A stretch of 64,000 bases of DNA. Origin: a virus. The position numbers and the translations under genes are program-made. The first letter of the stretch is position 1, and each line of letters starts with the position of its first letter. This document shows positions 1 through 42,145 of the stretch, one piece after another. The notes under the pieces are model-generated. The model saw only the letters and a program-made list of their open reading frames with translations, was not told the DNA's origin and ran no database searches. Location: positions 32,572 through 96,571 of IMG/VR virus record IMGVR_UViG_3300021364_000009; one strand, given 5' to 3'.

Positions 1-65
1 ATTCCAACTCCTTTAGTATGTTTATGACGCTCTTATTTTGTTATATGGTCTACAGGAGAAAACTA

Positions 66-413
66 ATGTCTAATTTTTGGATAAACAAAGAAGGTGTCAA
101 CACTCTGAAGGGGACACACACTAATCCTCTAAATAAGATATATCTTCCAGACTATCTTATTGCAGAATTTCTAGTCCAACACCCACATAGTCGAAAAGAC
201 TTTTTAAGTTTGTTTGATACTATGCTTCCAGAGGAGCAGTTTCGGCTCCAAGAAATACTCGATTCTTATCCCGGACTCTTCAAAGATCGAGAACACGACC
301 AAGAAATAGAAGACAACTTTCAGTCGAGAGCAAATAAGTCAAGAGTCAACACGATTTCAAAGATCAAACCAAAACAAGAGAAGGTTAAGAAAACTTTGAG
401 GGTAAATAGATAG
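66..413 (+). CDS. hypothetical protein
   Basis: ORF 18..413; ATG at 66 (MSNFW...) follows an AGGAG SD, so it is the likely start; no recognisable domain. Confidence 0.7.
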   Translation: MSNFWINKEGVNTLKGTHTNPLNKIYLPDYLIAEFLVQHPHSRKDFLSLFDTMLPEEQFRLQEILDSYPGLFKDREHDQEIEDNFQSRANKSRVNTISKIKPKQEKVKKTLRVNR

Positions 414-422
414 TTTATTTAT
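410..422 (+). promoter_or_regulatory. putative late promoter motif ATA-N5-TTTAT
   Basis: ATAGTTTATTTAT, 40 nt before ATG 462; identical 13-mer at 15710. Confidence 0.55.
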
Positions 423-461
423 GTGTTCGAGTTTTAAATCCTCAAATCTAGGAGCACTCTC

Positions 462-827
462 ATGAGCAATGAAAAACCTCAAGACCCAACACAGTTTGAT
501 AAACTACCTCTCAAGAGCAAGAAGTTTTTAGCGTACTTGCTCGCAGACCTTGGGTGGAAATTCCTTATGTTTTATGTGATCTGGGAATATCAGACTAAGA
601 TTGAGCATTATGCTTTCATGGTGCTTGTAACCATGATCGTTACGAGTGGCTTCATTCAGATTGGCTACATCTTAGGTCAAGCGGCACTCGACAAGTACAC
701 TCACGTTGCCGTTTCAGCTTTAGATAAAGATAAAAGCCCTAGTTCCCCAACCCCTTCTCCATCTCAGAAAAAGCAGAAGCCTTTAGGCGAATTAGAAGAC
801 GGTGAAGACTTTGACGGGACGCTATAA
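462..827 (+). CDS. two-TM membrane protein, holin-like
   Basis: GGAG SD; LKSKKFLA N-terminal motif reminiscent of phage holins, two hydrophobic helices, charged C-tail. Confidence 0.5.
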   Translation: MSNEKPQDPTQFDKLPLKSKKFLAYLLADLGWKFLMFYVIWEYQTKIEHYAFMVLVTMIVTSGFIQIGYILGQAALDKYTHVAVSALDKDKSPSSPTPSPSQKKQKPLGELEDGEDFDGTL

Positions 828-829
828 TC

Positions 830-1342
830 ATGGGTGGTAGTTCCGCAGAGAGAGTGGCAAAGAAATACGCTTCTTCTATTAAGAATAAGAAGTTTTCTTT
901 ACCTATCTCATATGAAGAATATTATGAGAGAAGTAGCTTTGGTAGGCACTTATCTCTTCAGCTTCAATATGAGGGTTCTGATGTCGGAAATATCTCGGGC
1001 ATCTTAGTTGAGACAAAAGACTTATCTTCTTATCAATGCAAGTCTGATATTCAAGCACTAGCAGAGAGCCACTCAACTACCTCTACAATCAGAGGTGATG
1101 TTCGGATTCTTACTCTAAATGAGTCTGACTTGTCCGAGAGCTTTCGTGGTGTAGGTCTTGGGCTTCAAATGTACACTGAGTTTCTTCGTATTTTTTGGGA
1201 TAAGGTGAAGAAGCCTTTTATTTTTATTCCTGATGCTTGTGAAGTGGGGCGTACATCACAAGATGCTAGAAGAGTTTGGAACTCACTTGCGAGAAATAAA
1301 CCTTCTTCTAATCTTTGTATCGCAATATTAGAGAGACCTTAA
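830..1342 (+). CDS. GNAT-like acetyltransferase-fold protein (paralog of 5755..6309)
   Basis: FRGVGLG matches the R/QxxGxG acetyl-CoA loop; shares TSxDAxRVWNSLAR with the paralog. Confidence 0.55.
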   Translation: MGGSSAERVAKKYASSIKNKKFSLPISYEEYYERSSFGRHLSLQLQYEGSDVGNISGILVETKDLSSYQCKSDIQALAESHSTTSTIRGDVRILTLNESDLSESFRGVGLGLQMYTEFLRIFWDKVKKPFIFIPDACEVGRTSQDARRVWNSLARNKPSSNLCIAILERP

Positions 1343-1354
1343 GGAGAAATAGTC

Positions 1355-2710
1355 ATGCCAAAATATGTGTTAAATGCAGTACAGCAAAAAGAACAAGCGA
1401 GGCATGTTTCTCAGGCACTACGCTCTTACACTAGATTAGCTAGAGAAGTTAAGAGTATAGCGACAACAGCTAAAGCAGATCGAAGTCCTGCAAGGAAATT
1501 TGTTCAGTTAGCTAAAGCAAGCTCTCAAGTGTCGTCATTTTTAAATGCTTTTGTGGGTCAGCCTACGGACTATAGTGTCGCATATAGTTTTCGAGAGAAG
1601 TGTATCTACGCCTTGAGAGATCATCTCTTAGGTGCAAAGACGGCGACAGAGGCGAAAGAAATAATAAAAAACAACGTAGAGAAAGCATACATTCAGATTA
1701 CTATTTCTAATGCACAGCAAAATCTACGGAGTCTGTTGCCTCCTGAAATCAAAGCGTTCTTGCCAGATAACATTGTGATCGAGACAGATGACGATGGCTC
1801 TATCCGTAACATGACGGATATTTTTGGTAATGAAAGAGATACGCTTCAGAATAAAGTGAACCTTGTTCGCAAGATTGTAGAGAAGTACAACACTATCGTG
1901 CAACAGGTTAAAAAAGACTTGAAGAGTTCAAACGAGAGAACAAAGTTCAAGGCTATTGTCACTTCTATTCTTATGGAAACAGGAATCCGTCCCGGACGTG
2001 AAGGTAACGCATCTAGTGTTGCAGGAGTTCAGGTAGAGACTTTTGGTGCAGTTACCCTCGCACCCGAACACATTACGTTTGTTAAGTCGAACTTTGCCGA
2101 ACTTCAGTTTATCGGAAAAAAAGGCACTTTAAATGTAGCTTCCCTAAGAGACAGTGTAGTGATTAAAGAACTGAAGTCCTACGCAAAGAAAGCACTGAAG
2201 GGTAAACTTAACCGAGTATTTGTAGATAGGAATGGTATCCCTTTATCTCATGTTGAGATAAACTACTATTTCCAAGAGTATTTTGGAGAGATCAGACCTT
2301 CAGACTTGAGGAAATACAAAGCTACTGAGCAGATGTTTGAAGCCTTGAAAGAGGAACAAAAGTCTTTGCAGGCCAAAATACTAGAGTTTGTGGAAGATGA
2401 GGTAGAAGACCTTAAACCTAGAGTTGTCCAAGAAATAGTAAACACGCTAAATGTGGCTACAGAAAGAGCAAGAAGTTCTTTGAGCCATCTTTCCGGCTCA
2501 GACACTATTAGTTATTATGTCAATCCTGATGTAGTCTTAACTTTTCTCTCTCAAGGTTTTGTGGAAGAAGACTTGAAAAGTGCAATCATAAGAAACCAAC
2601 GTGTGCTTTCTTTTGACGTTGATGTTTTTGTTGATCACGCCATGTCTAAGAGAGGCTCATCGAACGAGTCTTTGCTTTCTATTTATACAGACCTCTCAAA
2701 AATGTTTTAA
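1355..2710 (+). CDS. DNA topoisomerase IB (bacterial/poxvirus-like)
   Basis: Catalytic pentad in order: R (ETGIRPG), K (FIGKKG), R (SDLRKY), H (SLSH), Y (SYYVNP); also the ETFGAVTL..H segment. Confidence 0.85.
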   Translation: MPKYVLNAVQQKEQARHVSQALRSYTRLAREVKSIATTAKADRSPARKFVQLAKASSQVSSFLNAFVGQPTDYSVAYSFREKCIYALRDHLLGAKTATEAKEIIKNNVEKAYIQITISNAQQNLRSLLPPEIKAFLPDNIVIETDDDGSIRNMTDIFGNERDTLQNKVNLVRKIVEKYNTIVQQVKKDLKSSNERTKFKAIVTSILMETGIRPGREGNASSVAGVQVETFGAVTLAPEHITFVKSNFAELQFIGKKGTLNVASLRDSVVIKELKSYAKKALKGKLNRVFVDRNGIPLSHVEINYYFQEYFGEIRPSDLRKYKATEQMFEALKEEQKSLQAKILEFVEDEVEDLKPRVVQEIVNTLNVATERARSSLSHLSGSDTISYYVNPDVVLTFLSQGFVEEDLKSAIIRNQRVLSFDVDVFVDHAMSKRGSSNESLLSIYTDLSKMF

Positions 2711-2756
2711 TGGTCGGTATTCTCCTTTATAGTGAAACACAACAAGGAGGTGTGCT

Positions 2757-2945
2757 TTGAGAGTTTCTTTTTTTTACTTGGTCTTAATTCTTACTTTTAT
2801 TTTTGCTTTGTCTTCTGAAGCTGTTTCTTTCGTCTCTGTGGGAGACGTACCTTCCGTAGAAGGCGAAGAAGGTGGGAATATGTTGGACTCAGATGTTCCG
2901 CAGAAATACGACGAAGAAGAATTTGAAGAAGACTATGGGTGCTAA
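2757..2945 (+). CDS. small protein with N-terminal signal/TM helix and acidic tail
   Basis: AAGGAGG SD before TTG; hydrophobic first 24 aa. Confidence 0.6.
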   Translation: MRVSFFYLVLILTFIFALSSEAVSFVSVGDVPSVEGEEGGNMLDSDVPQKYDEEEFEEDYGC

Positions 2946-2947
2946 AA

Positions 2948-3553
2948 ATGAAAGATAAGAATGATTTTGGTGGGGGAAATAAGAACTCTCTTTACATCCC
3001 AATGTCGGAGATTGAGCAAGAATTCCTACAACGTCTTGTAGAGTCCAAAAGTTTCAGATTGATCATACATGAGTGGGGCTATGTAGATGAGCCAAGAGTG
3101 ACGTTTGGAGATAAAAACCTCCATGTGTTCTTTAAGCTCACTTTCGATAAGCCTGAGACACCAATGCCTGTTCATTATTTCGATTTGGAGCTTCAAACAA
3201 GATCGGGGATTACTCTATCGAAGCAAAGAATGAGCACTGAGTACGGAGGACAGCCAATCTTAGTGGCACAAGGCTTATCTCTCGATATGGTTTGGGACAT
3301 TGCTATTAAGCATATTGACCCTAAACTCTTAAAGTCTTTAATGCCTAGTGTTACAGGGCTTACTTCACGTCTTCAAGACCGTGACAACCATGAGTTTACG
3401 GTCTTTGGGAACATGAGGCTGAACCGAGACCTTAAAGATAAAGCTCTTGCTCTGCATAAGGCAGAGATTAAGCTCAAAGAAACAGAGAAGATTATCCGAG
3501 AAGAAGCGAGGAAAAACCCTCGAAACATGTTTGAAGATTATCCGAAAAAGTGA
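2948..3553 (+). CDS. hypothetical protein
   Basis: ORF 2939..3553; ATG at 2948 right after the upstream stop. Confidence 0.7.
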   Translation: MKDKNDFGGGNKNSLYIPMSEIEQEFLQRLVESKSFRLIIHEWGYVDEPRVTFGDKNLHVFFKLTFDKPETPMPVHYFDLELQTRSGITLSKQRMSTEYGGQPILVAQGLSLDMVWDIAIKHIDPKLLKSLMPSVTGLTSRLQDRDNHEFTVFGNMRLNRDLKDKALALHKAEIKLKETEKIIREEARKNPRNMFEDYPKK

Positions 3554-3807
3554 TTCTTTTCTCGCTCTATTTTGTCTCTTATCACTCCCATAAGAGAATA
3601 GACTGCTTCAGACTTTCGCTTGTTTAAATAGAACTCAGGTATCCACCATCTGTCAAATCTGCGATTGCCTTCATGCAGTAACGTGGCGAGTGCATTTCTG
3701 TATTTCTCTTTTTCATTGTCGTCTTCAACATGGTCGATCATCTTTTTTGTAGTATGCAAGATGACGATAAAACGTGTTTTGTATTTGTGGTTAAAGAAGT
3801 CGAGCAT
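3538..3807 (-). CDS. hypothetical protein
   Basis: ORF 3538..3879; likely start MLDFF at 3807 just after the ClpP stop; ends KNHFFG. Confidence 0.6.
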   Translation of the reverse strand: MLDFFNHKYKTRFIVILHTTKKMIDHVEDDNEKEKYRNALATLLHEGNRRFDRWWIPEFYLNKRKSEAVYSLMGVIRDKIEREKNHFFG

Positions 3808-3809
3808 TC

Positions 3810-4445
3810 TTAATTTCTCTCGTAATGTATGATCTCGTCTACGACACCATGCTGTAGACATTGTTCTGCATTTAGCCAAAGGTCTCTTTTTAAGAGTTTC
3901 TTTAGCTCTTTTTTCTTCATTTTAGTGTGCTTCAAATAAATGGACTCTATCATCTCCATAAGAGAGTCCATACTTTCTTTTTCGTCTTTTAAGTTTTCGT
4001 AAGTCCCCCAAACTCCAGTTGAAACTTGGTGCATAAGGAAGAAGGAGTGCTCAGTGATATATCTTTTAGCCCCTACTACAGAGAGCATTGTCCCAGCGGA
4101 AGCGACACTGCCTTCTACATATGTGATGACAGGAACTTGGCTATTCAGAATGTGGCTTGCACCTGCAAGACCCGCAAAAGCGTCTCCACCATAAGAGTTG
4201 ATATGGAGGTGGATTGGAGGGGCTGTACTCAAACCTAAGTTTTGAGATACTTGGATAATCTGATCGTTTAGGTTTTGGATAGCAATCCCTAGAAGCATAA
4301 CAGACTTGGGGTTTACAGACTCGTAGAAATAAATATGGTTCTCTACGGTAGTGACTGCCCCTTGAGGGCTATGGCTATCGTCCATATAAACGCTCTCTGT
4401 GTTGCTGTTTCTTACGACTCTTCGATTAAAGGGTGTATTGATCAT
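3810..4445 (-). CDS. clpP: ClpP-like (S14) serine protease subunit
   Basis: IHLHINSYGG, VASAGT (catalytic Ser), LMHQ (His), RDLWLNAEQCLQHGVVDEI (Asp region); ATG 4445 overlaps the upstream stop (alternative start 4478). Confidence 0.85.
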   Translation of the reverse strand: MINTPFNRRVVRNSNTESVYMDDSHSPQGAVTTVENHIYFYESVNPKSVMLLGIAIQNLNDQIIQVSQNLGLSTAPPIHLHINSYGGDAFAGLAGASHILNSQVPVITYVEGSVASAGTMLSVVGAKRYITEHSFFLMHQVSTGVWGTYENLKDEKESMDSLMEMIESIYLKHTKMKKKELKKLLKRDLWLNAEQCLQHGVVDEIIHYERN

Positions 4446-4858
4446 ATCACTCTCACAATGTGGTAATTGTCTCTCCAAGCAGAGATCAGTATATGGTTTA
4501 AATTAGATTCTTCCATAGAAAAACAATCAGGCATTTTCTTATGTTCGATCTGGCAGTATTTCTTGTGATAGGAGGCACAGCTTTTATAGCTAGAGCAAGT
4601 TTTATTTACAGGTGCTTTTTTTAAACATCCTTGCGGTTCTCTGACTTCTCGCATTAGAGGTGTCGCATCTCCATGTAAAGCACGATCCAATATATCTTCA
4701 GAAATACTTGGTATGAGGCTTTCCCACTCAGTCCCCTTGAGTTCAGCGTATTCGCCCCAAGAGTCTCCATCTACAGGCATTATTCTGGCTATTTTAGGGT
4801 TCTGCCAGATTTTGCTTTGGATAGACATAAAGACTATCCCGTTTCTTTTATAGATCAA
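4442..4858 (-). CDS. hypothetical Cys-rich protein
   Basis: Tiles between its neighbours with 4-nt overlaps; several Cys in the C-terminal half; start may be 4828. Confidence 0.65.
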   Translation of the reverse strand: MIYKRNGIVFMSIQSKIWQNPKIARIMPVDGDSWGEYAELKGTEWESLIPSISEDILDRALHGDATPLMREVREPQGCLKKAPVNKTCSSYKSCASYHKKYCQIEHKKMPDCFSMEESNLNHILISAWRDNYHIVRVI

Positions 4859-5172
4859 TGGTACACCCCTCTAGTGTTCTTTATTTCTTTGAGCACAATG
4901 TCTATTATCTCATCTGTCATAACTTCTTCTGAGCTGAAGAATTCTACTATTTCTTCAGAAGGAGAGCCGACTAAAGCTACCATTTCTTTAGTACCATCTT
5001 CGTCAGAGTGTACGACCACTTTTAAGTGTGGAAAGTAAAAATTCACACCCAACTTTGTCCCTATATTAATCCAAATGCTTATAAGCTCTTCTGGACTTTT
5101 AGCTTCCTCCATTAGAGTCTGCATAGTGCTATCGAATATGGCTTTTAGCTCTTCCTTAGAAAACAATGACAT
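4855..5172 (-). CDS. hypothetical acidic protein
   Basis: AAGGAG SD, fits the operon. Confidence 0.7.
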   Translation of the reverse strand: MSLFSKEELKAIFDSTMQTLMEEAKSPEELISIWINIGTKLGVNFYFPHLKVVVHSDEDGTKEMVALVGSPSEEIVEFFSSEEVMTDEIIDIVLKEIKNTRGVYH

Positions 5173-5182
5173 TGGTATCTCC

Positions 5183-5695
5183 TTATGTGAGTTTGCTATA
5201 TAACTTCTGCCATTGTTCCAAAGATTGAAGTTCTAGTGAACTTATGAAGTCATATGCTTCCCACATTCTTATTGCTTGAGATAACTCTATTTCTCTATTG
5301 TCGGTTTTGTTTTTCAACAGCGTATATACTCGCTTGGAGAGCACTTCTATTTCGGAAGGGTTTGTGTTTTTTTCAGAGTACACGTCCTTCTTTTTTTTGA
5401 AGACCCACTCACTAAGTCCGTATTTCTTCTCCAAAACGGAGCAAGAGTCATTGAAAGAGAGTCCTTCTTTTTCCACTACGGTAGAAATAGCATCTCTGCT
5501 TTTTCCACATGCAAAGCAAAACCAACTATTCGTTTGAGGATAGACTCTAGCTGAGGGTGCATTATCTGAACCGTCACCATGCAAGTCACATCGGAATTGT
5601 TGTTCTCCACCGTCTACATGGACATCGTAGCCGTACTCTTGTAGTACGGCTTCTATGTTTATTTGCTCTTTGATTCTTAAAGCACGTTTGTTCAA
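5183..5695 (-). CDS. stand-alone DnaG-type CHC2 zinc-finger (primase Zn-binding domain) protein
   Basis: CDLH...PSARVY...WFCFACG...DAI..V...EGLSF pattern; no TOPRIM domain; AAGGAGG SD before TTG. Confidence 0.8.
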   Translation of the reverse strand: MNKRALRIKEQINIEAVLQEYGYDVHVDGGEQQFRCDLHGDGSDNAPSARVYPQTNSWFCFACGKSRDAISTVVEKEGLSFNDSCSVLEKKYGLSEWVFKKKKDVYSEKNTNPSEIEVLSKRVYTLLKNKTDNREIELSQAIRMWEAYDFISSLELQSLEQWQKLYSKLT

Positions 5696-5709
5696 CTTGT
5701 ACCTCCTTT

Positions 5710-5722
5710 ATATCTTCTTTAT
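5710..5722 (+). promoter_or_regulatory. putative late promoter motif
   Basis: ATATCTTCTTTAT upstream of an isolated plus-strand gene. Confidence 0.55.
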
Positions 5723-5754
5723 ATGTTTTGATTATTAAAGTTAAAGGAGAAGCT

Positions 5755-6309
5755 ATGAGAAAGAAAATTGCGAACGATCTGCTTAAGCCCTTAGAGACAT
5801 ATGGCAAGTATGAAGGTGTTTTAGAGTATGACACATACACTCTTGGCGATGACTTGGGTGTCACCTTCTATGGTAATGGAGAACAGATCGGATATATTCG
5901 AGGACAGAAGCTTGACTATAAGAACTTCCAATCTTTGCAGAAAGTTAGAGATTGTTATCCCGATGTTGTGAACTTAGCAGAGATGGGTGGTAGTGATGTG
6001 TGTGACAGGAAAAAAGGAGTCTCCTGTCTTTTACCTAGAGTTTTCATGATTACAGACTCAGATTTAGATACGAACGACAATCAAGGAACCTCGCTAAGAG
6101 GCACAGGCATTGGTCGGATGATGTATGAAGCTATCTTCACAGAGTTTTATGAAGACCAAAAAAATAAGGATTTCATAGCTGTACCTATGAAATGTATTTT
6201 TGGTCGAAGCAGTACTTCTTCAGATGCTCAGAGAGTGTGGAACTCTCTTGCTAGGACATTAGAGTCTTCTAATGATCTTGTTCTTGTAGACAGACCTTTG
6301 ATCTTTTAG
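5755..6309 (+). CDS. GNAT-like acetyltransferase-fold protein (paralog of 830..1342)
   Basis: LRGTGIGRMMY loop; TSSDAQRVWNSLAR; AAGGAG SD before ATG 5755. Confidence 0.55.
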   Translation: MRKKIANDLLKPLETYGKYEGVLEYDTYTLGDDLGVTFYGNGEQIGYIRGQKLDYKNFQSLQKVRDCYPDVVNLAEMGGSDVCDRKKGVSCLLPRVFMITDSDLDTNDNQGTSLRGTGIGRMMYEAIFTEFYEDQKNKDFIAVPMKCIFGRSSTSSDAQRVWNSLARTLESSNDLVLVDRPLIF

Positions 6310-6650
6310 TTTTTTTCCCACCAATCGTCAAAACCCCCAAATGGGATGAGGTCATATATTTCTACAGGAATACTACCCACACAGTCATAACTGAACCATT
6401 CTCCTGAACCTCTCCACTCTTTGAGTTCTTCGTGGAGTTCTTTCTCTCTCCACCCCAAACCCTCTAAAGATGCAACTATTCTCAGAGTATTGGGGTTTCC
6501 TGTCTGTAAGTTTTTGAGTCTTCTTTCAGGATGTTTAGACCTCCCTATCTTTATTTCTCCCGTGTTAGAAGATTGGATGAAATAAAGATAGTCGCCTTTC
6601 CTTTCGAGCTTCCTTGCTCTGTAGTTTTTCACTAGCTCTTCATATTTCAT
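6306..6650 (-). CDS. GIY-YIG superfamily (T5orf172/MUG113-like) protein
   Basis: YLYFIQ...IKIGRSKHPERRLKNLQTGNP...EKELH...GEWF. Confidence 0.85.
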   Translation of the reverse strand: MKYEELVKNYRARKLERKGDYLYFIQSSNTGEIKIGRSKHPERRLKNLQTGNPNTLRIVASLEGLGWREKELHEELKEWRGSGEWFSYDCVGSIPVEIYDLIPFGGFDDWWEKN

Positions 6651-6652
6651 TC

Positions 6653-7882
6653 TTAGACTCCAAAGAAATTCTCTTTAGCCCATTTAGGTTCAGGAGCTTC
6701 TCCTTTGCTCCAAACCCAAATAGGCTCACCATAAACAGAACCACCTACTTCTCCCATCCTATCGCCAGGTCTTTTGTTCATCCTATACCCGATAACACCT
6801 TCATACGTTGCTCCTATTGACTCCATATAACTCAACATAGGTTCACAGATAGAAGCATTTACATCGGTTCTTGAGTGTCCCTTATCTGCGATGTTGATTG
6901 CAATTCTCCCCCCTTGGACTAAGCTCTCCCAAGCTAGTTTTAAACTAGGTAGAAAAAACAGATCGAGCCATTCTTGGTTGGTTTTATATCGTTTCCAACT
7001 TTGTGTCTCTTCTTCAGAGTATTTCTCAATGTTGAAATAAGGGGGAGAGGTAAATACAAAGTCGAACTTACGATCTCCAAGATCAGCATCTTCAGCGGGA
7101 GAGCAAATAAACTCTGTTTTCTTTCCTGTGTTGCAGAATTCAGAAATAGAGTTGTAGTGTGGGTGGAGCTTTGAGTTAGGGTCAATACCTACATAGCTCT
7201 CTGCGTTGGAAGCGTGGAACCCAACGAGTCTGTCACCCCAACCTGCGGAGAAGTCGATCACATTTTTAGCGTCAAAGAAATCGTAAAGTGTTTTTGCACA
7301 TGAAGGTTTGAACTGAGACGCCATGTAGTTTCCTAATCTCAGACAATCTCTAAGTTGCTTATTTCCGACACCATTTTTCAAAGCGTCTTTCTCGGAAAGC
7401 GTCCAAAGAACTCTTAATACATATCGAGTCTTTGATTTGCATCCGTCTCTAGTCCATTCTCTCATCGGGCTTTTGTGCTCAAAATGAGCACACTTCATTC
7501 TTTCAATGTGTGTGTGCTGATCTGACACTTTTAAACCATGAGATGAAGATTGGAAGTAACACGGCTTATCTAAATATGTAGTGGGCACATCAGGGATGGT
7601 TCTTAGACAAACCCAATCTCCAATCTCTATTTCTTTGCTCTCTTGTTTCAGACTATTAAAGTCTTTGTTTAGCTTATTGTGTGTGTATTTTCTTTCGGGG
7701 AAAGGTAGGTTATTTTCTTCTATCAGACTAGAAAGATGTTCGATTATTTCCTTCTTCTCGAAGTTATGTTTTATTTCACTCCAAATATGAGGGGGGATTG
7801 AAATCTCGTCTTTTTCTATAAGACTGTAGTCTGAGAGCTTTTTTGTTGTTTCTTTTTCTGCACTTAAATCAAATAATTCCAT
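6653..7882 (-). CDS. DNA amino-methyltransferase (m4C/m6A), array copy 1
   Basis: Motif I DFSAGWGDRL, motif IV FTSPPYF. Confidence 0.9.
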   Translation of the reverse strand: MELFDLSAEKETTKKLSDYSLIEKDEISIPPHIWSEIKHNFEKKEIIEHLSSLIEENNLPFPERKYTHNKLNKDFNSLKQESKEIEIGDWVCLRTIPDVPTTYLDKPCYFQSSSHGLKVSDQHTHIERMKCAHFEHKSPMREWTRDGCKSKTRYVLRVLWTLSEKDALKNGVGNKQLRDCLRLGNYMASQFKPSCAKTLYDFFDAKNVIDFSAGWGDRLVGFHASNAESYVGIDPNSKLHPHYNSISEFCNTGKKTEFICSPAEDADLGDRKFDFVFTSPPYFNIEKYSEEETQSWKRYKTNQEWLDLFFLPSLKLAWESLVQGGRIAINIADKGHSRTDVNASICEPMLSYMESIGATYEGVIGYRMNKRPGDRMGEVGGSVYGEPIWVWSKGEAPEPKWAKENFFGV

Positions 7883-7884
7883 TT

Positions 7885-10236: not shown

Positions 10237-10311
10237 CTCTTAAACTCCAAAAAAGTTTTCTAATTTAAACTTAGGTTCGGGGGCTTCACCTTTACTCCAT
10301 ATCCAAATAGG
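9068..10311. repeat. 68-bp exact direct repeat (9068..9135 = 10244..10311) at the 3' ends of MTase copies 3 and 4
   Basis: actccaaaaaagttttctaatttaaacttaggttcgggggcttcacctttactccatatccaaatagg at both positions. Confidence 0.95.
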
Positions 10312-15232: not shown

Positions 15233-15237
15233 TAATA

Positions 15238-15711
15238 TTAAGGGAGGTTTTTGATGAAGATTTTGATCAGTTTCCTATAGGGTATACCGTTGGTGAGCTT
15301 TAGGTACTTGTGCTTTAAGAGATCGAAAGCCACGTTATCTAGTTCATTCTTGTCTTTTGTCTGCATATATAACTTTGCAGAAATAACGGGACTCCAATGA
15401 AGATAGACCCAGAGGGCCGCTCTTTTGTGGAGCCTGTTTATTTCTAGCTTTTGCTCTGTAGTTAATGTGCTCTCTAAGTCTCTTGAGTAAGATTTATCTT
15501 TGCTTTGATTGTGGTAGATAGTCCCAAGATGAAAAAACTCACTGCTAATTCTTAGGAGCCTTGAGGAGATGCCATAGCCATTCTTCCACCTTCGGATAGC
15601 GATTATCCTGACTAAAGGGTCTTTAGTGTCCGAAAGAGTGTTGAGTATTTCTAAGATAGCTAAATTACAAGAATGCTCTAGCAGTTTCACAATTTTTCTT
15701 GTGTTGCTCAT
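15238..15711 (-). CDS. hypothetical protein
   Basis: AAGGA SD, 157 aa, heads the minus-strand replication cluster. Confidence 0.7.
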   Translation of the reverse strand: MSNTRKIVKLLEHSCNLAILEILNTLSDTKDPLVRIIAIRRWKNGYGISSRLLRISSEFFHLGTIYHNQSKDKSYSRDLESTLTTEQKLEINRLHKRAALWVYLHWSPVISAKLYMQTKDKNELDNVAFDLLKHKYLKLTNGIPYRKLIKIFIKNLP

Positions 15712-15722
15712 AGTTTATTTAT
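15710..15722 (+). promoter_or_regulatory. putative late promoter motif
   Basis: ATAGTTTATTTAT upstream of 15789. Confidence 0.55.
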
Positions 15723-15788
15723 CCTTTTTCTATTCTTAGTCCGTTACCTGCTACCTAGTACAACTATAAACTTACTATTGGAGTCCTT

Positions 15789-16163: not shown

Positions 16164-16166
16164 TCT

Positions 16167-16663: not shown

Positions 16664-16676
16664 ATACTCCTTTTAT
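16664..16676 (+). promoter_or_regulatory. putative late promoter motif
   Basis: ATACTCCTTTTAT upstream of 16762 (overlaps the SD of the divergent Nudix gene). Confidence 0.45.
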
Positions 16677-16761
16677 AGTTTATTGGGATAGAAACCCACA
16701 CAGATCAAAGGCATAAAAAATGTACGACAAAAAAGCAGATAACTTTTCGGGGAGAAATAAA

Positions 16762-17610: not shown

Positions 17611-17656
17611 TTTTAACGCATCTATCGGTCTTTAATCTACTAGGAGAGATATTATT

Positions 17657-20133: not shown

Positions 20134-20331
20134 GAAGACTCCTGTTGTTGTTACGCCCGAAATCGGGGTTTGAAGTTGAGAAGCTCTGTGTGACAGTATC
20201 GGTCTTCGAGAGCTGTGGTTACTTTTCTCACAAACACCCACCCTGTGCAAGTACTTTTTTTATTTTTTTATCTTTTATGCTGTGGGTATTCTAGTGAGGC
20301 AGACACTAACGAACATATTGGAGAAAAAAAC

Positions 20332-24187: not shown

Positions 24188-24200
24188 ATACTTAGTTTAT
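24188..24200 (+). promoter_or_regulatory. putative late promoter motif
   Basis: ATACTTAGTTTAT overlapping the 5' arm of the RBS hairpin. Confidence 0.55.
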
Positions 24201-24251
24201 TCTCCTAGAATGTTGTGAGAGAAGATTTAACAACATTCTAGGAGAGTAAAC
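24195..24251 (+). promoter_or_regulatory. 22-bp stem hairpin occluding the SD of the first baseplate gene
   Basis: gtttattctcctagaatgttgt (24195..24216) pairs with acaacattctaggagagtaaac (24230..24251), one G-U. Confidence 0.85.
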
Positions 24252-33297: not shown

Positions 33298-33342
33298 TTT
33301 TTTAATCTTTTATACTCATTTCATTCCCAAAAGGAGATTGTT

Positions 33343-34104: not shown

Positions 34105-34117
34105 ATAGTCTTTCTAT
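34105..34117 (+). promoter_or_regulatory. putative late promoter motif
   Basis: ATAGTCTTTCTAT immediately before the RBS hairpin. Confidence 0.5.
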
Positions 34118-34182
34118 TCTTTCTTGTTGTTGATTTATGTGTTGGTAAAATAAACTCCAACACATAACCCCGATAAGGAGGA
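34118..34182 (+). promoter_or_regulatory. long imperfect hairpin occluding the SD of the gene at 34187
   Basis: Perfect 11-bp inner stem 34135..34145/34157..34167; 12-bp outer stem 34118..34129/34171..34182 (four G-U) covering AAGGAGG. Confidence 0.7.
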
Positions 34183-34186: not shown

Positions 34187-34798
34187 ATGAAAAATAAAGA
34201 CTTTATTTCTGCACCTGCTACAACAGGGCTAGGTTTTGGGTTTAACTTCAGAGAAACGGGTGTCTCTGTATTGGGGGAAGTGAAGGCTACGCTTTCATAT
34301 GCAGACGGCAGAGAAGAAATAGTCGTAGATAAAAAAAACATCTATACTCTTGATGGTGGTGTTTTAGCGGCGATGCTTTTTAAGGGTGAAGCAGGTGTGG
34401 GTGGTCTAAAGAAGTTAGCTGTAGGAAATGGAGCTAACGGAGACGCTAGTTCTCCCGATATTGCTACAGACAAACAAAGACGCTTGAATGTCGAAGTGGA
34501 AAGAAAAGACTTCTCCGCTGTAGTTTACCGAAAGCCAGATGGCTCTGTGTCCGACGTTCCGACCAATGTTATTGATTTTACTACAGTTTTCTCAGAGAAT
34601 GAGGCTAACAGCGGTTTGAATGAGATGGGTCTAGTATCTCCCTCTTCTCCTTCTGTGATTAATGACCAAGACCCTCAAGATCGAGACACAGAAAGAGACT
34701 TGAGAGCTTACGATATTCTCGTTAATTACTTGACGTTTCCAGTAATCAATAAGCCACAGGGTTCAGTGCTTGCGATAACTTGGCGTTTGACTTTTTAA
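34187..34798 (+). CDS. tail collar/baseplate-associated protein
   Basis: LAVGNG...FTTVF...EAN..LNEMGL...YLTFPVINK...ITWRLTF pattern. Confidence 0.7.
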   Translation: MKNKDFISAPATTGLGFGFNFRETGVSVLGEVKATLSYADGREEIVVDKKNIYTLDGGVLAAMLFKGEAGVGGLKKLAVGNGANGDASSPDIATDKQRRLNVEVERKDFSAVVYRKPDGSVSDVPTNVIDFTTVFSENEANSGLNEMGLVSPSSPSVINDQDPQDRDTERDLRAYDILVNYLTFPVINKPQGSVLAITWRLTF

Positions 34799-38026: not shown

Positions 38027-38039
38027 GGAGTAGTCCAAG

Positions 38040-41000
38040 ATGCCTAGTAAGAATAATCCAAAATCGGTTATAAAAATAGGAGAAGGTAGTTCCGTCTGCC
38101 AAGATGGTTCTAAAGGTAATCTTTCTACTCAAGTCCAAATGGCTCAAGACGCCTATGATGCGGAGCAGATTTCTGCTGAAAACCCTTTTGAGACATATCT
38201 CGGAGATGAAGTACAGTCACACCTAGACGATCTAGCTTCACAAGTAAAAGTGAAGCCTCCATACCTTGGAGAAGGTGCTAAGAGTTATAGCTATGGTGGT
38301 AATACAAAAACTATCTCAGGGACTCCCGATTGGGGGGTTCTAAAGCAAGCCGACAACACAGTATGGGATAGAAACAGTACGGTAACGGTTGGCTTTCTTC
38401 CTTTAGATAGCACTTATTTTAGAAATACAAATGTTGAAACCTTATTATATTCTTACAATAAGCCCACGCCAAATGGTTCAGAAGGTGCTGACCCAAGTAC
38501 GGATTTGACCTTTAACTATGATCACACAAAGTTACTAGGGGGCGGAGAAGGTGCTTCTTTCCTAGCTTCAGCGAGAGAGCAAGTAAACGAGCCTTTCAGA
38601 CATTGTAGAGTAACTTATCAGGGGGCTTCTTCAACCACTTCCGAAGGTTTTACTATTTCAGGTTTCTTATTTCCTGCGGATAGGGGGACTGTCGCTCTTT
38701 TATATTGGGCTACAGGTGTGCCTAATTTCTCTTATACTACAGCCACTTCAGTTTCAGAAATATCTCAAAGGGTTATTTCTGCAATCAACTTAGGGGAAGG
38801 ACGACTAAACAAAGAAAGTTCGCCTTCGATCTTCAATGAAGGTACAGATCAGTTTGTTTTTCCTAGCAAGCTCACAGGTCAGTATGACTTAAGAGAAATG
38901 CAAACAGGGCTTATTAGAAATGATTTGGCAGATGCAGGTCTTCCTGTTTCTTTTACAGATTTTGTTGCAGACCCTAATTTAGGATCAGTGCGTCTGTTAA
39001 AAGAGCCGGGAGCTTGTTTCTTTGGTGTAGGACAGCCTACAGTAGACCCTAGAGGAAATATTCCTGTTCTTTTTGGTGCTTATTCTTGGGATGAGAAAGT
39101 AGCCTCTGATTGGGTAGAAAACGACACGAACTTTTTGGCGTATCGTCTACCTGCGTTACAAGATTACTCTCCTTCTGGCTTAAAAACTCCAAATGAGCAC
39201 CGAGAGCGTTTCTTTCAAGTAATACAACCTGCTTCTGTTTCTTCAGACTTTGATACAGCGGGTGACTATGTGACTTTCGGAGACGACTATTACACTTACC
39301 AAGTAGCCCGATACAGACATGTCGTTTCTTACGAAGAGTTAGACCTTACAGCAACCTCGAAAGGTTCTTTTGCTCTAGTGCATTTCAAAAAAGAGGATAC
39401 TTTTGAGAGACTTGTGCGAGATGGTATTTCTCCTTCAGAAGATGATCTTTATTCTGTCAGCTTTTTCAACCTTCTTGAAGGTGAAGACGTGGCTAATATC
39501 GTTTCAGACGGAGAAGACTATAATGAGTATGGGATTCCAGTACTCGCACCTAAGAATAAAGATGCCTCTTCTAACACAATTTTAAAACCTAACGTGTTCG
39601 TCAGAAGCAGAAGCAGTGCTGACAAGCTACAAGGCTCAACATCAAGAACACACATTACGCACAAGAATGAAGATGCTGATTCTAGTGCAGACTTGAGATT
39701 TAAAGTTGGAGATGCGTATTTCACCACTATTTCTGGTGTCAAATATATTCTGCCAACTAGAGACAAATCCAAGAAAAGCTCGGATGTTGTATTTCTTTCA
39801 GAGTCTTATAATAAGATACTGAACAAAGTTTCTTTGGTAGGAGACGTACACCTTTCTGATTTTTCTATCCCAAGGTATTTCTCTAGCAAAACAAGTGCTT
39901 CAAAGAAATATAACGAGCCTTCATCTCCGTTCGTTTTAAATTTTTCGGCATATTCTTCAGACTCTAACTTGTTTGTAGAAGAGCCTAGTCTCAAAGAAAT
40001 CTCTACAGGTAAACAGCTCGTCACTTTGGGGTGGGACGATATTAAGGCGGATATGAGTGCCTACAACCCCACGGTTGCAGGGACTTATTTTGATGTAAAT
40101 GTGATACCTCAAGGAGATACGGGTCTCTGTACTTTTACAACCCAAGGAAATATCTCTGTGATGTATAAGAGTCCTCTATACCATTATGATGGTTTGGGGT
40201 ATGCAGATGTCTTACAGCCCTCATATACCCCTAGTAATCTAAATGATGGACATCAGACCTCTAATTTCTTATATCACTCTTCAAGACTCGTCTCTTTAAT
40301 TCAAAACGCAAATACAAGTCTGTTTTATTTCCACTTCTCTTATCTTGCAGGAGCTAGAAATGCAGACCAAGCTTTTGCGATCTTCAGGTATGACCCTGAA
40401 GGTTTCAGAGTTTATATTAGTTTAGACCTGACAGACGACAGAATAGAACTCTGCTCGGGTGAAAACAAAATAGGAGGTGGGGGTGCTTTTCCTTCGTACC
40501 CTATATATCGGCCTAAAATAAATACAGAAGCACCTCAGAGAAACGCCTTTGGAAGCGAAGACGCAACTGCACTTTTAGTAGGTGGGGAGACGTATTATGT
40601 TGAAGCACAGTCTGGTTTCGCTGCTAATCTTTTCGACTATTCTGTAGTGGGAACCTCCTATGATGTAGATTACGCTACAGATGTAGCTACTAACTTCTCA
40701 GGAGCCTATGGGAACTCTGCTGAGTTTAATAACAGGTCAGCAGGGTATGGTATCAGTGCGATTCTTACTACAGAAAGCGGAAGTGCATCCATCGACCCCA
40801 ACATAATACTTGATACTAGGTCAAAACTGCATCATGGGTACGATTTACATGAAGTCTCTAAGGATGTAGACCCTAGTCTCCCTACTTATGGGAATTTTAC
40901 ACAGAACCAAAGAGGCATTATTTCTGCCATGTCTCTAGGCACATCTCCCGTACTTTCAAATATGTTGATTTTCCCCAATGACGTAGCTCCTCTGACGACT

Positions 41001-42077
41001 TTATTTACCCCAAGAAAAGACACACAAGAAAGATTTCTTGACGAATCTTACAGGTTGAGCGTCTTGTTTGAAGGTATTGAAGACCAACAAAATATTCAAG
41101 GTCCGGGACTTCCTCAAGGTTCAAGGGTGAACCTCTTAAGAGTAAGAGATGATGTGTTTGCTACATCAGTCCACGGAGGTGCAGGCTATTTAAGGAACTC
41201 ACACCATTGGGACTGGTGTGTATTCACAAATAATTCACCTTTCTATGATGGTAATGGGAATCTATATAACAAAGAAGGTGAAGCACAAGTATCGGGCTTA
41301 CCTTCTTTAGCTTTGGCTCCATTAAATGGAGGAGAATACGGGGTTCCCCGTAGAGGTTTATTAAGACTTCCAATACTTAATTACCAAGTAGATACTTATT
41401 TCCCCAACGAGACTTATGATCCAAGCTGGACTACTGGTGCTATGGGAGAAGTTGGATTGTATTACAGACAGCCAGACTACAATCACGGGGTAGGAGGCAC
41501 ATATTACAATAGGGAATTTTCTTACAGCAGAGCTTTTGACGTAGAGTTTAGTCGTAGTGGTACTGTTGAAAATATGAAAGGGACTTCTCGCTTTCAAATG
41601 AGAGTCCTTGGCTTAAGTTTTTCAGATTTCGCATTCAAATCAGACCGTGGAGTTTCAATCTATGTGAAAATTCCAGGCTTGACTGCATGGCTGGATGTTG
41701 GAAGGGCAAATAATCAGGGCGTAAGTAAACAGCATATTTCCAAAGATGGCTCAGGGTGTCTTATTTCTGAGAGAGAAGGTTTCACTGTTAAAGAGAATGT
41801 CTACTTTACTGATCTTACTTTGGAGTTAGGGCCTTTAGCCACCTTTGCAAAGAATTCTACGGGCGAGTGTCCTGTTCTTGTGAAAGTTTCTTTCAAGGGC
41901 TTGGGGATGGAAGGTTACGATAATAGTATGAAGTTGGATTTTGAACCTGGAGTTAACCCTCCTGCTATGTCTACAGAGTATTATCCTGTAGTTCTAAGGA
42001 GAGGTTTGGTAGGCTTAGAAATACTAAGAATGTCAAATGGTAAAAACTACGATGAGGATGAAGTAGTTTACGTTTGA
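38040..42077 (+). CDS. large virion structural protein (hypothetical)
   Basis: AAGGAG SD; S/T/G/Y/F-rich; inside the tail block; ERFLDESYRL motif. Confidence 0.7.
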   Translation: MPSKNNPKSVIKIGEGSSVCQDGSKGNLSTQVQMAQDAYDAEQISAENPFETYLGDEVQSHLDDLASQVKVKPPYLGEGAKSYSYGGNTKTISGTPDWGVLKQADNTVWDRNSTVTVGFLPLDSTYFRNTNVETLLYSYNKPTPNGSEGADPSTDLTFNYDHTKLLGGGEGASFLASAREQVNEPFRHCRVTYQGASSTTSEGFTISGFLFPADRGTVALLYWATGVPNFSYTTATSVSEISQRVISAINLGEGRLNKESSPSIFNEGTDQFVFPSKLTGQYDLREMQTGLIRNDLADAGLPVSFTDFVADPNLGSVRLLKEPGACFFGVGQPTVDPRGNIPVLFGAYSWDEKVASDWVENDTNFLAYRLPALQDYSPSGLKTPNEHRERFFQVIQPASVSSDFDTAGDYVTFGDDYYTYQVARYRHVVSYEELDLTATSKGSFALVHFKKEDTFERLVRDGISPSEDDLYSVSFFNLLEGEDVANIVSDGEDYNEYGIPVLAPKNKDASSNTILKPNVFVRSRSSADKLQGSTSRTHITHKNEDADSSADLRFKVGDAYFTTISGVKYILPTRDKSKKSSDVVFLSESYNKILNKVSLVGDVHLSDFSIPRYFSSKTSASKKYNEPSSPFVLNFSAYSSDSNLFVEEPSLKEISTGKQLVTLGWDDIKADMSAYNPTVAGTYFDVNVIPQGDTGLCTFTTQGNISVMYKSPLYHYDGLGYADVLQPSYTPSNLNDGHQTSNFLYHSSRLVSLIQNANTSLFYFHFSYLAGARNADQAFAIFRYDPEGFRVYISLDLTDDRIELCSGENKIGGGGAFPSYPIYRPKINTEAPQRNAFGSEDATALLVGGETYYVEAQSGFAANLFDYSVVGTSYDVDYATDVATNFSGAYGNSAEFNNRSAGYGISAILTTESGSASIDPNIILDTRSKLHHGYDLHEVSKDVDPSLPTYGNFTQNQRGIISAMSLGTSPVLSNMLIFPNDVAPLTTLFTPRKDTQERFLDESYRLSVLFEGIEDQQNIQGPGLPQGSRVNLLRVRDDVFATSVHGGAGYLRNSHHWDWCVFTNNSPFYDGNGNLYNKEGEAQVSGLPSLALAPLNGGEYGVPRRGLLRLPILNYQVDTYFPNETYDPSWTTGAMGEVGLYYRQPDYNHGVGGTYYNREFSYSRAFDVEFSRSGTVENMKGTSRFQMRVLGLSFSDFAFKSDRGVSIYVKIPGLTAWLDVGRANNQGVSKQHISKDGSGCLISEREGFTVKENVYFTDLTLELGPLATFAKNSTGECPVLVKVSFKGLGMEGYDNSMKLDFEPGVNPPAMSTEYYPVVLRRGLVGLEILRMSNGKNYDEDEVVYV

Positions 42078-42145
42078 TTGTTCTTTAATACTCTCAGAGT
42101 ATCACAACATTGTAGGTGTAAAATATTTAAAGCGAGGTTCTAAAC

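Follow-up and report, generated by a model that had tools for sequence, protein, structure and literature searches.

A conserved promoter-like motif upstream of virion genes in an uncultured marine jumbo phage clade

Introduction

An earlier note described a promoter-like pattern, DTA-N5-TYTAT, before nearly every plus-strand unit of the DNA analysed here, a stretch of 64,000 nt referred to as the window, and proposed that it is a phage-specific late promoter. The question raised by this locus is whether the pattern is a genuine signal and, if so, which genes it would serve and what would read it. The contig covers ~31% of a roughly 375-kb jumbo phage genome. Among its relatives, the best sampled was the complete genome G001 (375,691 bp).

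Results

Motif statistics in the window

The checks suggested in the earlier note included a de novo motif search split by strand, comparison with shuffled sequence, and inspection of related phages. The observation held. The pattern DTA-N5-TYTAT occurred 38 times in the window, compared with 21.0 ± 4.3 times in dinucleotide shuffles, and none of 100 shuffles reached 38. Non-coding DNA makes up 2.6% of the window, yet it held 13 of the 38 matches (binomial p 8e-12), 12 of which had a same-strand start codon 20–95 nt downstream; the other 25 lay in coding DNA. When regions upstream of plus-strand genes were subjected to an unsupervised EM search, the top motif was aTACTtttTTTATttT, and upstream of minus-strand genes the search returned the Shine-Dalgarno sequence alone. 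Five plus-strand units start at a strand switch (at 66, 5755, 15789, 16762 and 20332), and the motif precedes each of them. Matches resembling sigma-70 promoters were not enriched in the window (23 vs 38.8 ± 5.5, and 32 vs 36.2 in a second count).

The informative consensus is narrower than the one first given: for this lineage it is TA[G/C]Y-N3-TYTAT, and for a relative TTnrTAGTTTNTTTAT. The heptamer TATTTCT was also over-represented, by 12-fold, and is unrelated to the promoter motif.

Sites in the window

The following copies and candidate copies were recorded (window coordinates).

13..25, plus strand: motif copy TTAGTATGTTTAT, 40 nt before gene 66-413
410..422, plus strand: canonical copy ATAGTTTATTTAT, 39 nt before gene 462-827
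5699..5722, plus strand: overlapping matches GTACCTCCTTTAT and ATATCTTCTTTAT before gene 5755-6309, in a 59-nt divergent gap
15710..15722, plus strand: canonical copy ATAGTTTATTTAT within a divergent gap of 77 nt; gene 15789-16163 follows after 66 nt
15766..15778, minus strand: copy ATAGTAAGTTTAT, 54 nt before minus gene 15238-15711
16664..16676, plus strand: ATACTCCTTTTAT, 85 nt before gene 16762-17610
16713..16725, minus strand: candidate copy GTACATTTTTTAT, fourth base off consensus, 52 nt before the NUDIX gene 16310-16660
17613..17625, plus strand: weak copy TTAACGCATCTAT, 31 nt before gene 17657-18889
20251..20263, plus strand: GTACTTTTTTTAT within a divergent gap of 198 nt; gene 20332-24180 (1282 aa) follows after 68 nt
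24188..24200 (feature 24188..24251), plus strand: ATACTTAGTTTAT, before the baseplate operon starting at 24252
33301..33313, plus strand: weak copy TTTAATCTTTTAT before gene 33343-34098, not fitting the consensus
34105..34117, plus strand: ATAGTCTTTCTAT, 69 nt before gene 34187-34798
42077..42089, plus strand: weak variant ATTGTTCTTTAAT, unsupported, upstream of gene 42146-55036 (4296 aa)

At the nine main sites (13, 410, 5710, 15710, 16664, 17613, 20251, 24188 and 34105), letters and coordinates were exactly as claimed in the earlier note, and the copy at 20251..20263 had the highest score with the de novo matrix (17.5 bits). The copy at 13..25 sits within a 63-nt divergent gap adjoining the DNA polymerase gene, the copy at 410..422 overlaps the stop codon of the upstream gene, and the 13-mer ATAGTCTTTCTAT recurs before contig gene 6647-7471, beyond the window.

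Three or four sites from the earlier note's list are either weak or confounded. Site 17613 is present as quoted but fits the refined consensus poorly, and the "weaker variants" reported at 2717, 33301 and 42077 do not fit it; the last of these, matching neither DTA-N5-TYTAT nor the refined pattern, found no support as a motif copy. Sites 5699 and 16664 are ambiguous because both overlap CTCC, the reverse-complement ribosome-binding site of a divergent minus gene: gene 5183-5695 for the first match at 5699, and gene 16310-16660 for 16664..16676, where TATACT also scores as a sigma-70-like -10 element. Orthologue comparison gave no confirming copy for 5699..5722, which is thus rated a probable, though partly confounded, copy. 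The word ATACTCCTTTTAT occurs identically in G004, upstream of gene 73220-73591, in the gene order 71364-71765 (aligned with 15789-16163), 71899-72741, 73220-73591; 73220-73591 gave no orthologue match to 16762-17610.

Restriction of the motif to the plus strand was too narrow a claim, since a minus-strand copy exists at 15766..15778. Equating the plus strand with late genes was likewise an oversimplification. In the window, one motif copy stands before a minus-strand gene that lies just upstream of the helicase operon, which counts against the late-promoter reading.

Conservation in relatives

In G001, TAGTTTNTTTAT (consensus TTnr-TAGTTTNTTTAT) was observed in 41 copies against 0.4 expected. 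Thirty-nine of these were intergenic, with non-coding DNA amounting to 10.7% of the genome, and 38 were correctly oriented 10–120 nt before a start codon, on both strands and mostly at 29–56 nt. A reversed-pattern control gave 3 matches compared with 52 for the true pattern. Among 45 motif-bearing upstream regions, 27 lay between co-directional genes and 18 at divergent junctions, where ~10–20 nt separate the block from the start of the neighbouring gene; at these junctions a promoter must exist, and in short divergent intergenic regions the motif was the sole conserved element. When sites were aligned from -40 to +70, the positions conserved beyond the block were T at -4, T at -3 and a purine at -1, with neither a conserved -35 element nor an extended -10 TG in that interval. 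The base following the block was mostly a purine. About 16 of 57 G001 sites precede genes with one common N-terminal tag and leader, so these copies may be duplications and not independent evidence.

Orthologous genes of G000, G001 and G004 carried the motif at similar distances despite 40–50% protein identity. For gene 66-413, the orthologues had ATAGTTCCTTTAT in G001 (31 nt before the start) and ATATTGCTTCTAT in G004, and for gene 462-827 the G004 motif was identical, 41 nt before the start. The minus-strand copy was also conserved, with an identical ATAGTAAGTTTAT 48 nt before the G004 orthologue of 15238-15711. Canonical copies replaced weak ones in two cases: TAGTTTCTTTAT or ATAGCTCTTTTAT stood in the same place in G001, L009 and L006 before orthologues of 17657-18889 (product glycine-rich, 410 aa), and ATACTTTATTTAT stood 46 nt before the G001 orthologue of 33343-34098.

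Hairpins after the motif

At the baseplate operon, whose downstream genes gave Pfam Sheath_initiator and PHROG baseplate wedge matches, a long hairpin (z -9.4) lies directly 3' of motif 24188-24200 and buries the ribosome-binding site. In four other lineages, a hairpin that differs in sequence (z -3.8 to -8.1) follows either the motif or its TTTAT core at the orthologous site; the G001 site reads TTAGTTTATTTAT. In five lineages this hairpin pairs with the last 3–6 bases of the motif, so that a start site within or upstream of the block would fit better than one 6–8 nt downstream. The hairpin after 34105..34117 likewise covers the ribosome-binding site (MFE -25.0 kcal/mol, z -4.3), and in 44 of 73 leaders a hairpin starts 0–2 nt past the block.

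Two motif classes

Units headed by the TAGTTTNTTTAT motif in G001 (class B) encode the major head protein, portal, head protease, tail fibre, minor tail and virion proteins, together with a few non-structural genes (a dehydrogenase, a DprA-like protein and homing endonucleases). A second, 17-nt block, GTAACCCCTTATCTATA (class A), precedes units with a helicase, the RNR small subunit, DNA-binding proteins and regulators. Class A and class B alike consist of a single block, equal in length and without a -35 element; they have the 3' core TTATYTAT in common and differ in the 5' half, and therefore resemble a single recognition scheme in which one half is specific to the class. The class-A block starts with GTAA and ends with CTATA, followed by a purine, and is flanked by a weak TTGTAA-N16-TAGTGT arrangement.

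Candidate reader proteins

No known RNA polymerase family was detected. Searches with Pfam PF00940, by motif, and by phmmer with T7 RNAP, N4 RNAPII and N4 vRNAP yielded no T7-type or N4-type polymerase, where PF00940 gave no match in control genomes either and its sensitivity is unverified. Beta/beta' domains were not found in the complete relative G001. These genomes encode many giant proteins of up to 4296 aa with no assigned function, which have no Pfam, PHROG or PDB match and no DxDGD motif, and whose genes vary greatly in size between relatives.

Relatives within the clade encode an ECF-like sigma factor, a 201-aa protein whose gene is absent from this ~31% fragment. It matched Pfam Sigma70_r2 (E 8e-4) and a PHROG sigma factor family (E 1e-3), its family profile matched sigma-H in the PDB (3mzy, E 3.5e-8), and several homologues are labelled "sigma24 family" by JGI. 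The best 50 Foldseek matches to its AF2 model (pLDDT 79) were nearly all sigma-factor chains, with ECF types first. In jumbo phages, a sigma factor is the usual sign of dependence on the host polymerase (PMC7598289). Two points count against this protein as the reader: it carries a region-4-like domain, whose normal target is a -35 element, and no -35 element is conserved; and it has no specific tie to the class-B motif over class A.

A further regulator is encoded in the window.

62462..63319, minus strand: repeated helix-turn-helix protein, 285 aa, with PHROG and Pfam matches

It matched PHROG 323 ("transcriptional regulator, D5-like", E 1.4e-48) as well as Pfam Sigma70_r4_2 and Myb-like domains, and a class-A unit of G001 includes a protein of this PHROG family. 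The window protein may act in trans on one of the two promoter classes.

Discussion

We lean, with slightly more than even confidence, towards the motif being the late (virion-gene) promoter of this uncultured marine clade, at which the host RNA polymerase core would be redirected by phage-encoded factors. The proposal of a phage-specific late promoter, neither sigma-70-like nor a T4 box, is supported by orientation, fixed distance to the start codon, conservation at orthologues, association with virion-gene units, and the ECF-like sigma of the relatives. What the comparisons establish is that the motif exists, how it is oriented and placed, that it is conserved and that it divides by gene class; promoter activity as such, the reading protein, the start-site position and late timing are inferred. 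One conserved block of ~12–17 bp without a -35 partner, at the upstream edge of short intergenic gaps, 30–85 nt before the start codon and pointing to the gene it would serve, would most likely be read by the host core once phage factors have redirected it. The prime candidate factor would be the ECF-like sigma, and a helper such as the repeated helix-turn-helix protein may contribute. The class-A block would drive replication and regulatory genes in the relative. Against the late-promoter reading stand the start-site position favoured by the baseplate hairpins, the few non-structural genes in class-B units and the possible duplicates among the G001 sites.

The block could instead be the promoter of a phage-encoded RNA polymerase beyond current profiles, with the single-subunit (T7-type) layout of a binding half and an initiation half ending in TATA or TTAT and a start right after the block. 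The single blocks of equal length without a -35 element, the purine mostly following class B, the hairpins starting 0–2 nt past the block, and the many matchless giant proteins are in keeping with this, as is the class-A end, which resembles the CTATA in which T7 and SP6 promoters end. This reading nevertheless appears doubtful: the profile, motif and phmmer searches (with the stated reservation on PF00940), the beta/beta' search and the DxDGD search were all negative, a sigma factor is present, and the size variation of the giant genes suits fibres or adhesins better than a polymerase. It is unlikely that the block is a site for a phage activator, for example the D5-like protein, that recruits host sigma-70 holoenzyme to weak promoters, the block itself not being read by sigma. 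The window does encode a strongly matching regulator of this multi-HTH kind, TAGTTT fits the minimal -10 pattern TAnnnT with a purine 6–7 nt downstream, and class A has its weak TTGTAA-N16-TAGTGT flanks. However, a -35 element and an extended -10 TG are not conserved, sigma-70-like matches are depleted or at chance, and conservation peaks within the block and not in hexamers with sigma-70 spacing.

An RNA-level role, either as an AU-rich processing site (RNase E type) or as the leader edge of a stabilising hairpin that masks the ribosome-binding site on polycistronic late transcripts, is very improbable. The word is U-rich and single-stranded, stable hairpins follow directly and pair with its last bases, and 27 of the 45 G001 sites lie between co-directional genes. 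At the 18 divergent junctions, however, with ~10–20 nt to the neighbour's start, there is no upstream transcript to process; 41 exact copies of an 11-base word are far above known RNase E specificity, a class-specific 5' half joined to a common core points to DNA recognition, and no Rfam family matched. That AT-rich intergenic DNA and reverse-complement ribosome-binding sites of divergent genes produced the motif by chance has a negligible probability. It would account for the CTCC at 5699 and 16664 and for the 25 of 38 coding matches to the loose initial pattern, but it is refuted by the G001 enrichment with its strict orientation and spacing, the reversed-pattern control, the non-coding concentration in the window, and the conservation at orthologous positions. 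Many sites, moreover, have co-directional genes on both sides, so that a divergent ribosome-binding site is absent there.

As a late promoter, the motif would be a new sequence but a familiar kind of signal. Promoters of T7-family single-subunit polymerases are blocks of 17–23 bp from -17 to +6. They are similar in having one ~17 bp block, two classes differing in the upstream half, and, for class A, the CTATA end followed by a purine; they differ in that no single-subunit polymerase gene was found here by any search run. T4 late promoters have TATAAATA as their -10 element, which gp55 reads together with gp33 and the gp45 clamp. They are likewise single AT-rich elements without a -35 partner, restricted to late genes and compact in short gaps, and the core TnTYTATA matches TATAAATA at 5–6 of 8 positions. 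The motif described here is, however, longer and otherwise different in sequence, and the phage is not T4-like, with almost no structural matches in PHROGs.

Jumbo phages that encode RNA polymerases also have class-specific conserved promoters predictable from sequence, such as the AT-rich early block and late TATG of phiKZ and the late AACA-N6-TW of AR9 (PMC7598289). Their motifs are unrelated to the present ones, beta/beta'-like genes were undetected in G001, and their late promoters could not be predicted from sequence (PMC7598289), whereas the late class here is as sharp as the early one. In Salmonella phage 7-11, late promoters (GTAAtg-N16-aCTA) are served by phage sigma gp47 (PMC8948821). 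A phage sigma with the host core polymerase drives late genes there, as proposed here, and GTAA also opens the class-A block of G001; in contrast, that promoter is bipartite with a 16-nt non-conserved spacer, a spacing that does not fit the continuous block. In phiEco32, the middle and late promoters are recognised by host RNA polymerase with phage sigma gp36, with the consensus tAATGTAtA (PMC8948821). The differences are a block of 9 nt instead of 12–17 nt and of another sequence, the lack of region 4 homology in gp36 compared with the region-4-like domain of the clade sigma, a 77-kb podovirus genome against roughly 375 kb, and the second class with a common 3' core found here. Both systems nonetheless have a phage-encoded ECF-like sigma and a single highly conserved AT-rich block without a -35 element, placed upstream of late structural genes and findable by sequence analysis.

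Genome context and relatives

The window corresponds to bases 32572–96571 of a 96,571-bp source record whose completeness was rated by CheckV at about 31%. Its GC content is about 40%, and its genes carry strong Shine-Dalgarno sites. Gene boundaries were set with a simple caller combining open reading frames and ribosome sites, not with a trained gene finder. Its recognizable genes fall into these groups.

Minus strand: family-A DNA polymerase, SNF2-type and DnaB-type helicases, primase zinc ribbon
Minus strand: four methyltransferases in tandem, a NUDIX enzyme and a ClpP-like protease
Plus strand: baseplate wedge, hub and sheath-initiator-like proteins
Plus strand: a run of giant proteins (1071–4296 aa) without a database match

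Close phage relatives were not found in GenBank by megablast or tblastn, and the sole GenBank relative by DNA polymerase was LR745208.1, a 485-kb uncultured phage. Relatives of the contig were located in IMG/VR and marine metagenomes by an alignment query; a single-protein query of viral contigs found nothing. The relative G001 (375,691 bp, completeness rating 100%) was analyzed whole. The relative G004 (84 kb) is closer to the contig than G001, with protein identities of 65–92%.

Two stretches of the contig outside the window, 8138–9058 and 25692–26666 (L001:8138-9058 and L002:5692-6666), each of about 0.9 kb, hold no called gene of at least 60 aa. In G001, a 935-aa protein (L013:3255-6062, minus strand) carries an intein with a LAGLIDADG domain (Pfam Intein_splicing, E 5e-9).

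The late motif in the window

The earlier note had proposed a phage-specific late promoter of the loose pattern DTA-N5-TYTAT before plus-strand units, and every coordinate and sequence that it quoted was correct on re-reading. The pattern matched 38 times in the window, compared with 21.0 ± 4.3 in shuffled sequence. Non-coding DNA makes up only 2.6% of the window, yet it holds 13 of these matches (p 8e-12), and 12 of the 13 lie 20–95 nt 5' of a start codon on the same strand. Blind EM on plus-strand upstream regions recovered aTACTtttTTTATttT; upstream of minus-strand genes the same procedure returned the ribosome-binding site only. All five plus-strand units that start at a strand switch have a copy of the motif, in gaps of 59–198 nt. 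In the lineage of the window, the informative consensus is TA[G/C]Y-N3-TYTAT.

The association with plus-strand units was borne out, but its restriction to that strand was not, as a minus-strand copy lies at 15766–15778 and possibly another at 16713–16725. The sites that the earlier note listed as weaker variants (near 2717, 33301 and 42077) did not fit the consensus. For the weak sites 17613 and 33301, canonical copies were found before the orthologues in relatives. Copies 5699 and 16664 overlap CTCC, the complement of the ribosome-binding site of the divergent gene.

A good match, ATACTCAGTTTAT, was also observed on the plus strand at 55593–55605, within gene 55036–55752 and 161 nt 5' of the gene for a 1723-aa protein; it may be a candidate internal promoter.

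Conservation in relatives

The exact word TAGTTTNTTTAT is present 41 times in G001, where 0.4 copies would be expected; chance is a barely credible source of the block. Non-coding DNA accounts for 10.7% of that genome; 39 of the 41 copies are intergenic, and 38 are oriented, on either strand, to a start codon 10–120 nt away (mostly 29–56 nt). A slightly looser pattern gave 52 matches, compared with 3 for the reversed-pattern control. The logo extends to TTnr-TAGTTTNTTTAT (late class: TTnrTAGTTTNTTTAT).

Across 48 G001 sites, no conserved position was found outside the block between -40 and +70, and the motif therefore lacks a -35 element. Of the 45 motif-bearing upstream regions, 18 are divergent junctions, where the block stands only 10–20 nt from the ribosome-binding site of the neighboring gene; this spacing leaves the block as the only candidate promoter element there.

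Conservation in related phage contigs, suggested earlier as a check, was confirmed: orthologues in the window's own contig, G001 and G004 have the motif at similar distances. Orthologous proteins of the contig and G001 are 40–50% identical and the gaps are unalignable, and the motif is nonetheless kept. In the more distant LR745208.1 (485 kb) the motif is lacking, with 5 matches versus 16 for the control. The late motif is very probably a promoter.

About 16 of 57 G001 sites head genes with a common N-terminal tag, MRRSASE(I/V)I..LE.R, and these genes have a conserved leader (…TTAACCCTTAACC…ATGGAGAA) 3' of the late motif. They look like a promoter–leader–tag cassette joined to varied proteins. 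Because such sites are possibly duplicated cassettes, the number of independent G001 sites is put at about 40. Examples of tag-bearing late genes in G001 are:

L013:1440-1817
L017:15435-15779
L020:5303-5884

A second motif class and gene content

G001 contains a second motif, tGTAACCCCTTAtCTATa, here termed class A, an early/middle block of 17 nt written GTAACCCCTTATCTATA. Its first 11 bases, GTAACCCCTTA, occur in 62 exact copies, and the shorter core AACCCCTTA in 67, of which 59 are intergenic. Copies point toward small genes, with the highest density at 334–362 kb. Examples are:

L030 and L031 (pieces of G001, within L013–L031)
Also L007:1076-1264, beyond the G001 pieces

When aligned at their 3' ends, both classes are 17-mers sharing T at position 2 and the core TTATYTAT(A). 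Positions 5–8 set them apart, reading CCCC in class A and TAGT in the late class.

Transcription units of G001 were built 3' of each motif and scanned against PHROGs. Late-motif units encode the major head protein (E 2e-51), portal (4e-32) and head maturation protease (2e-43), as well as tail fibre, minor tail and virion structural proteins. Second-motif units encode a DNA helicase (1e-91), the ribonucleotide reductase small subunit (2e-79), DNA-binding proteins and regulators; their median gene size is 125 aa versus 212 aa in late-motif units. The partition of gene classes is good, not absolute, and the label "late" derives mainly from it.

In its exact G001 form, class A is absent from the window's own contig (G000) and from the genomes G002, G003 and G004, and the searches of G000 and G004 recovered no class-A-like motif. 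The 5' half may drift from lineage to lineage, or else the early region is missing from the fragments.

Leader hairpins and the start position

Directly 3' of many motif copies lies a hairpin with CTCC in its 5' arm and the GGAG ribosome-binding site in its 3' arm, and pairing begins 0–2 nt past the block in 44 of the 73 leaders. In two long hairpins of the window, pairing begins inside or right after the motif and sequesters the ribosome-binding site, reaching as far as the start codon:

24195–24251: hairpin at the head of the baseplate operon
34118–34182: hairpin before gene 34187–34798

At the head of the baseplate operon, such a hairpin is found in five lineages (z -3.8 to -9.4) with unrelated stem sequences, beginning within the TTTAT core and finishing 2–4 nt 5' of the ATG. 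The five orthologous leaders were folded singly, since their hairpins share no sequence homology and defeat consensus folding. No Rfam family matched.

Hairpins that start in the block suggest that the RNA would include the block end, that is, that transcription would start at or inside the block, as in T7-type promoters. Alternatively, the hairpin works on read-through transcripts. The averaged pairing profile around the motif was flat and did not place the 5' end. An intrinsic terminator was rejected, as the block precedes the hairpin and the hairpins run to the ribosome-binding site and start codon; the sole terminator-like hairpin 5' of a motif is a small one at 24169–24181.

Candidates for reading the motif

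Searches of the complete relative G001 turned up no RNA polymerase belonging to a known family. The T7-type profile PF00940 had no match in the five genomes, although its controls were silent too, and a motif search for a T7-like polymerase returned the DNA polymerase only. Nothing below E 0.1 was obtained by phmmer with T7 RNAP, N4 RNAPII and N4 vRNAP. PF00562 and PF00623, for beta/beta'-like subunits, had no match at E ≤ 0.1 in G000–G004, while their controls matched in all 14 genomes; very divergent subunits could escape these profiles. The DxDGD motif of two-barrel polymerases is absent from the giant proteins, and searches for a polymerase by Pfam, PHROGs, PDB and regular expressions for T7 motifs A, B and C were all negative.

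One 201-aa ECF-like sigma factor, conserved in the clade, was found in each of the two relatives, its gene adjoining that for thymidine kinase. A candidate regulator lies in the window itself.

G001 L023:18172-18777, minus strand: ECF-like sigma factor
G004 2996–3655, minus strand: ECF-like sigma factor
Window 62462–63319, minus strand: repeated-HTH protein of 285 aa, PHROG 323 "transcriptional regulator, D5-like" (E 1e-48), with sigma region-4 and Myb-like matches

The sigma factor matched Pfam region 2 (E 8e-4) and a PHROG sigma factor (E 1e-3), and its family profile retrieved sigma-H 3mzy from the PDB (E 3.5e-8). Its AlphaFold model had a pLDDT of 79, and sigma-factor chains, led by ECF types, made up nearly all of the top 50 Foldseek matches. 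Homologues are common in ocean metagenomes (82 clusters), several under the JGI name "sigma24 family". No paralogue was found, nor was a sigma gene on the window's contig, which covers about 31% of the genome. A member of the PHROG 323 family was also noted in an early/middle-type unit of G001.

According to a published review, a jumbo phage that lacks a polymerase of its own usually carries sigma-factor genes (PMC7598289). Given this precedent, the presence of the sigma factor and the failure to find a known-family polymerase, we favor a reading in which host core polymerase with a phage sigma, possibly plus a helper, would recognize the late motif. That the 201-aa protein itself reads this class is a tentative assignment, a little short of evenly balanced; it is awkward that the protein has a region-4-like domain while no -35 element is conserved, and that the block is longer than a -10 element. 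The repeated-HTH regulator could supply the class-specific half.

A phage polymerase of a kind that the profiles miss is an unlikely reader of the late motif, and it is slightly less likely still that such an enzyme reads both 17-nt classes; the giant proteins that lack annotation might include it. Similarly doubtful is an activator site for the sigma-70 holoenzyme: TAGTTT fits TAnnnT with a purine 6–7 nt downstream, but there is neither a -35 element nor TG, and sigma-70-like matches are depleted (23 versus 38.8 ± 5.5 in shuffled sequence for window 1–20000; 32 versus 36.2 ± 6.2 in another count). The deficit in window 1–20000 may reflect avoidance of host-type promoters. An RNA processing site is a distinctly improbable explanation: both the exactness with which the word recurs and its occurrence at divergent junctions speak against it.

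Comparison with known promoters

The closest known systems are the phage-sigma late promoters of phiEco32 and phage 7-11; the T4 late box is another close comparator. The phiEco32 late promoter is a single, phage-sigma-dependent element, tAATGTAtA, with the start 6–8 bp downstream; that of phage 7-11, GTAAtg-N16-aCTA, is likewise phage-sigma-dependent (PMC8948821). As in the phiEco32 type, the late motif is a single block without -35, with structural genes behind it and replication genes behind class A.

The motif is not a sigma-70-type promoter (TTGACA and TATAAT, 16–18 bp apart), since positions -40 to -5 are unconserved in the 48 G001 sites. Nor is it of T4 type, where the box TATAAATA lies at -10; the consensus here resembles that box only through its 3' core, at 5–6 of 8 positions. 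Its length fits the continuous block of about 17–23 bp of the T7 family, which ends at the start site. That type also requires a T7-like or N4-like polymerase of the phage's own, for which the searches described above were negative. The phiKZ/AR9 type was set aside as well, split beta/beta'-like subunits not being detected in G000–G004. The kind of signal is already known; its novelty lies in the sequence, in the clade and in being paired with a second class of common core.

The late motif offers a ready map of late transcription units in an abundant marine jumbo-phage group that is wholly uncultured and barely annotated, and with both classes together, unknown genes can be sorted into early/middle and late by sequence alone. 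The 201-aa sigma and the two related 17-nt promoters form a testable pair, which could show how a region-4-bearing sigma uses promoters without -35. If the promoters are not read by the sigma, the pair would point to an unknown polymerase, and if a phage polymerase is the reader of both classes, a widespread marine jumbo-phage clade would combine T7-like promoter logic with an unknown transcription enzyme. The promoter-plus-hairpin cassettes are candidate compact expression parts.

The heptamer TATTTCT

TATTTCT/AGAAATA was the most over-represented 7-mer of the contig, with 319 copies versus about 26 expected (12-fold). The copies are spread evenly over both strands of the whole 96.5-kb contig, including window 1–64000, and have no flanking consensus. 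Since TYTAT followed by TTCT contains the heptamer, it contaminates promoter matrix scans.

G004 (L034–L038) has 284 copies in the same pattern and G001 has 69, the chance level. The methyltransferase array was rejected as the cause, because it is present in all three lineages and so does not explain a lineage-specific heptamer. Within genes of the contig, 303 copies were counted against 60.8 ± 6.6 after per-gene synonymous-codon shuffling; the heptamer is a lineage-specific word at the DNA level.
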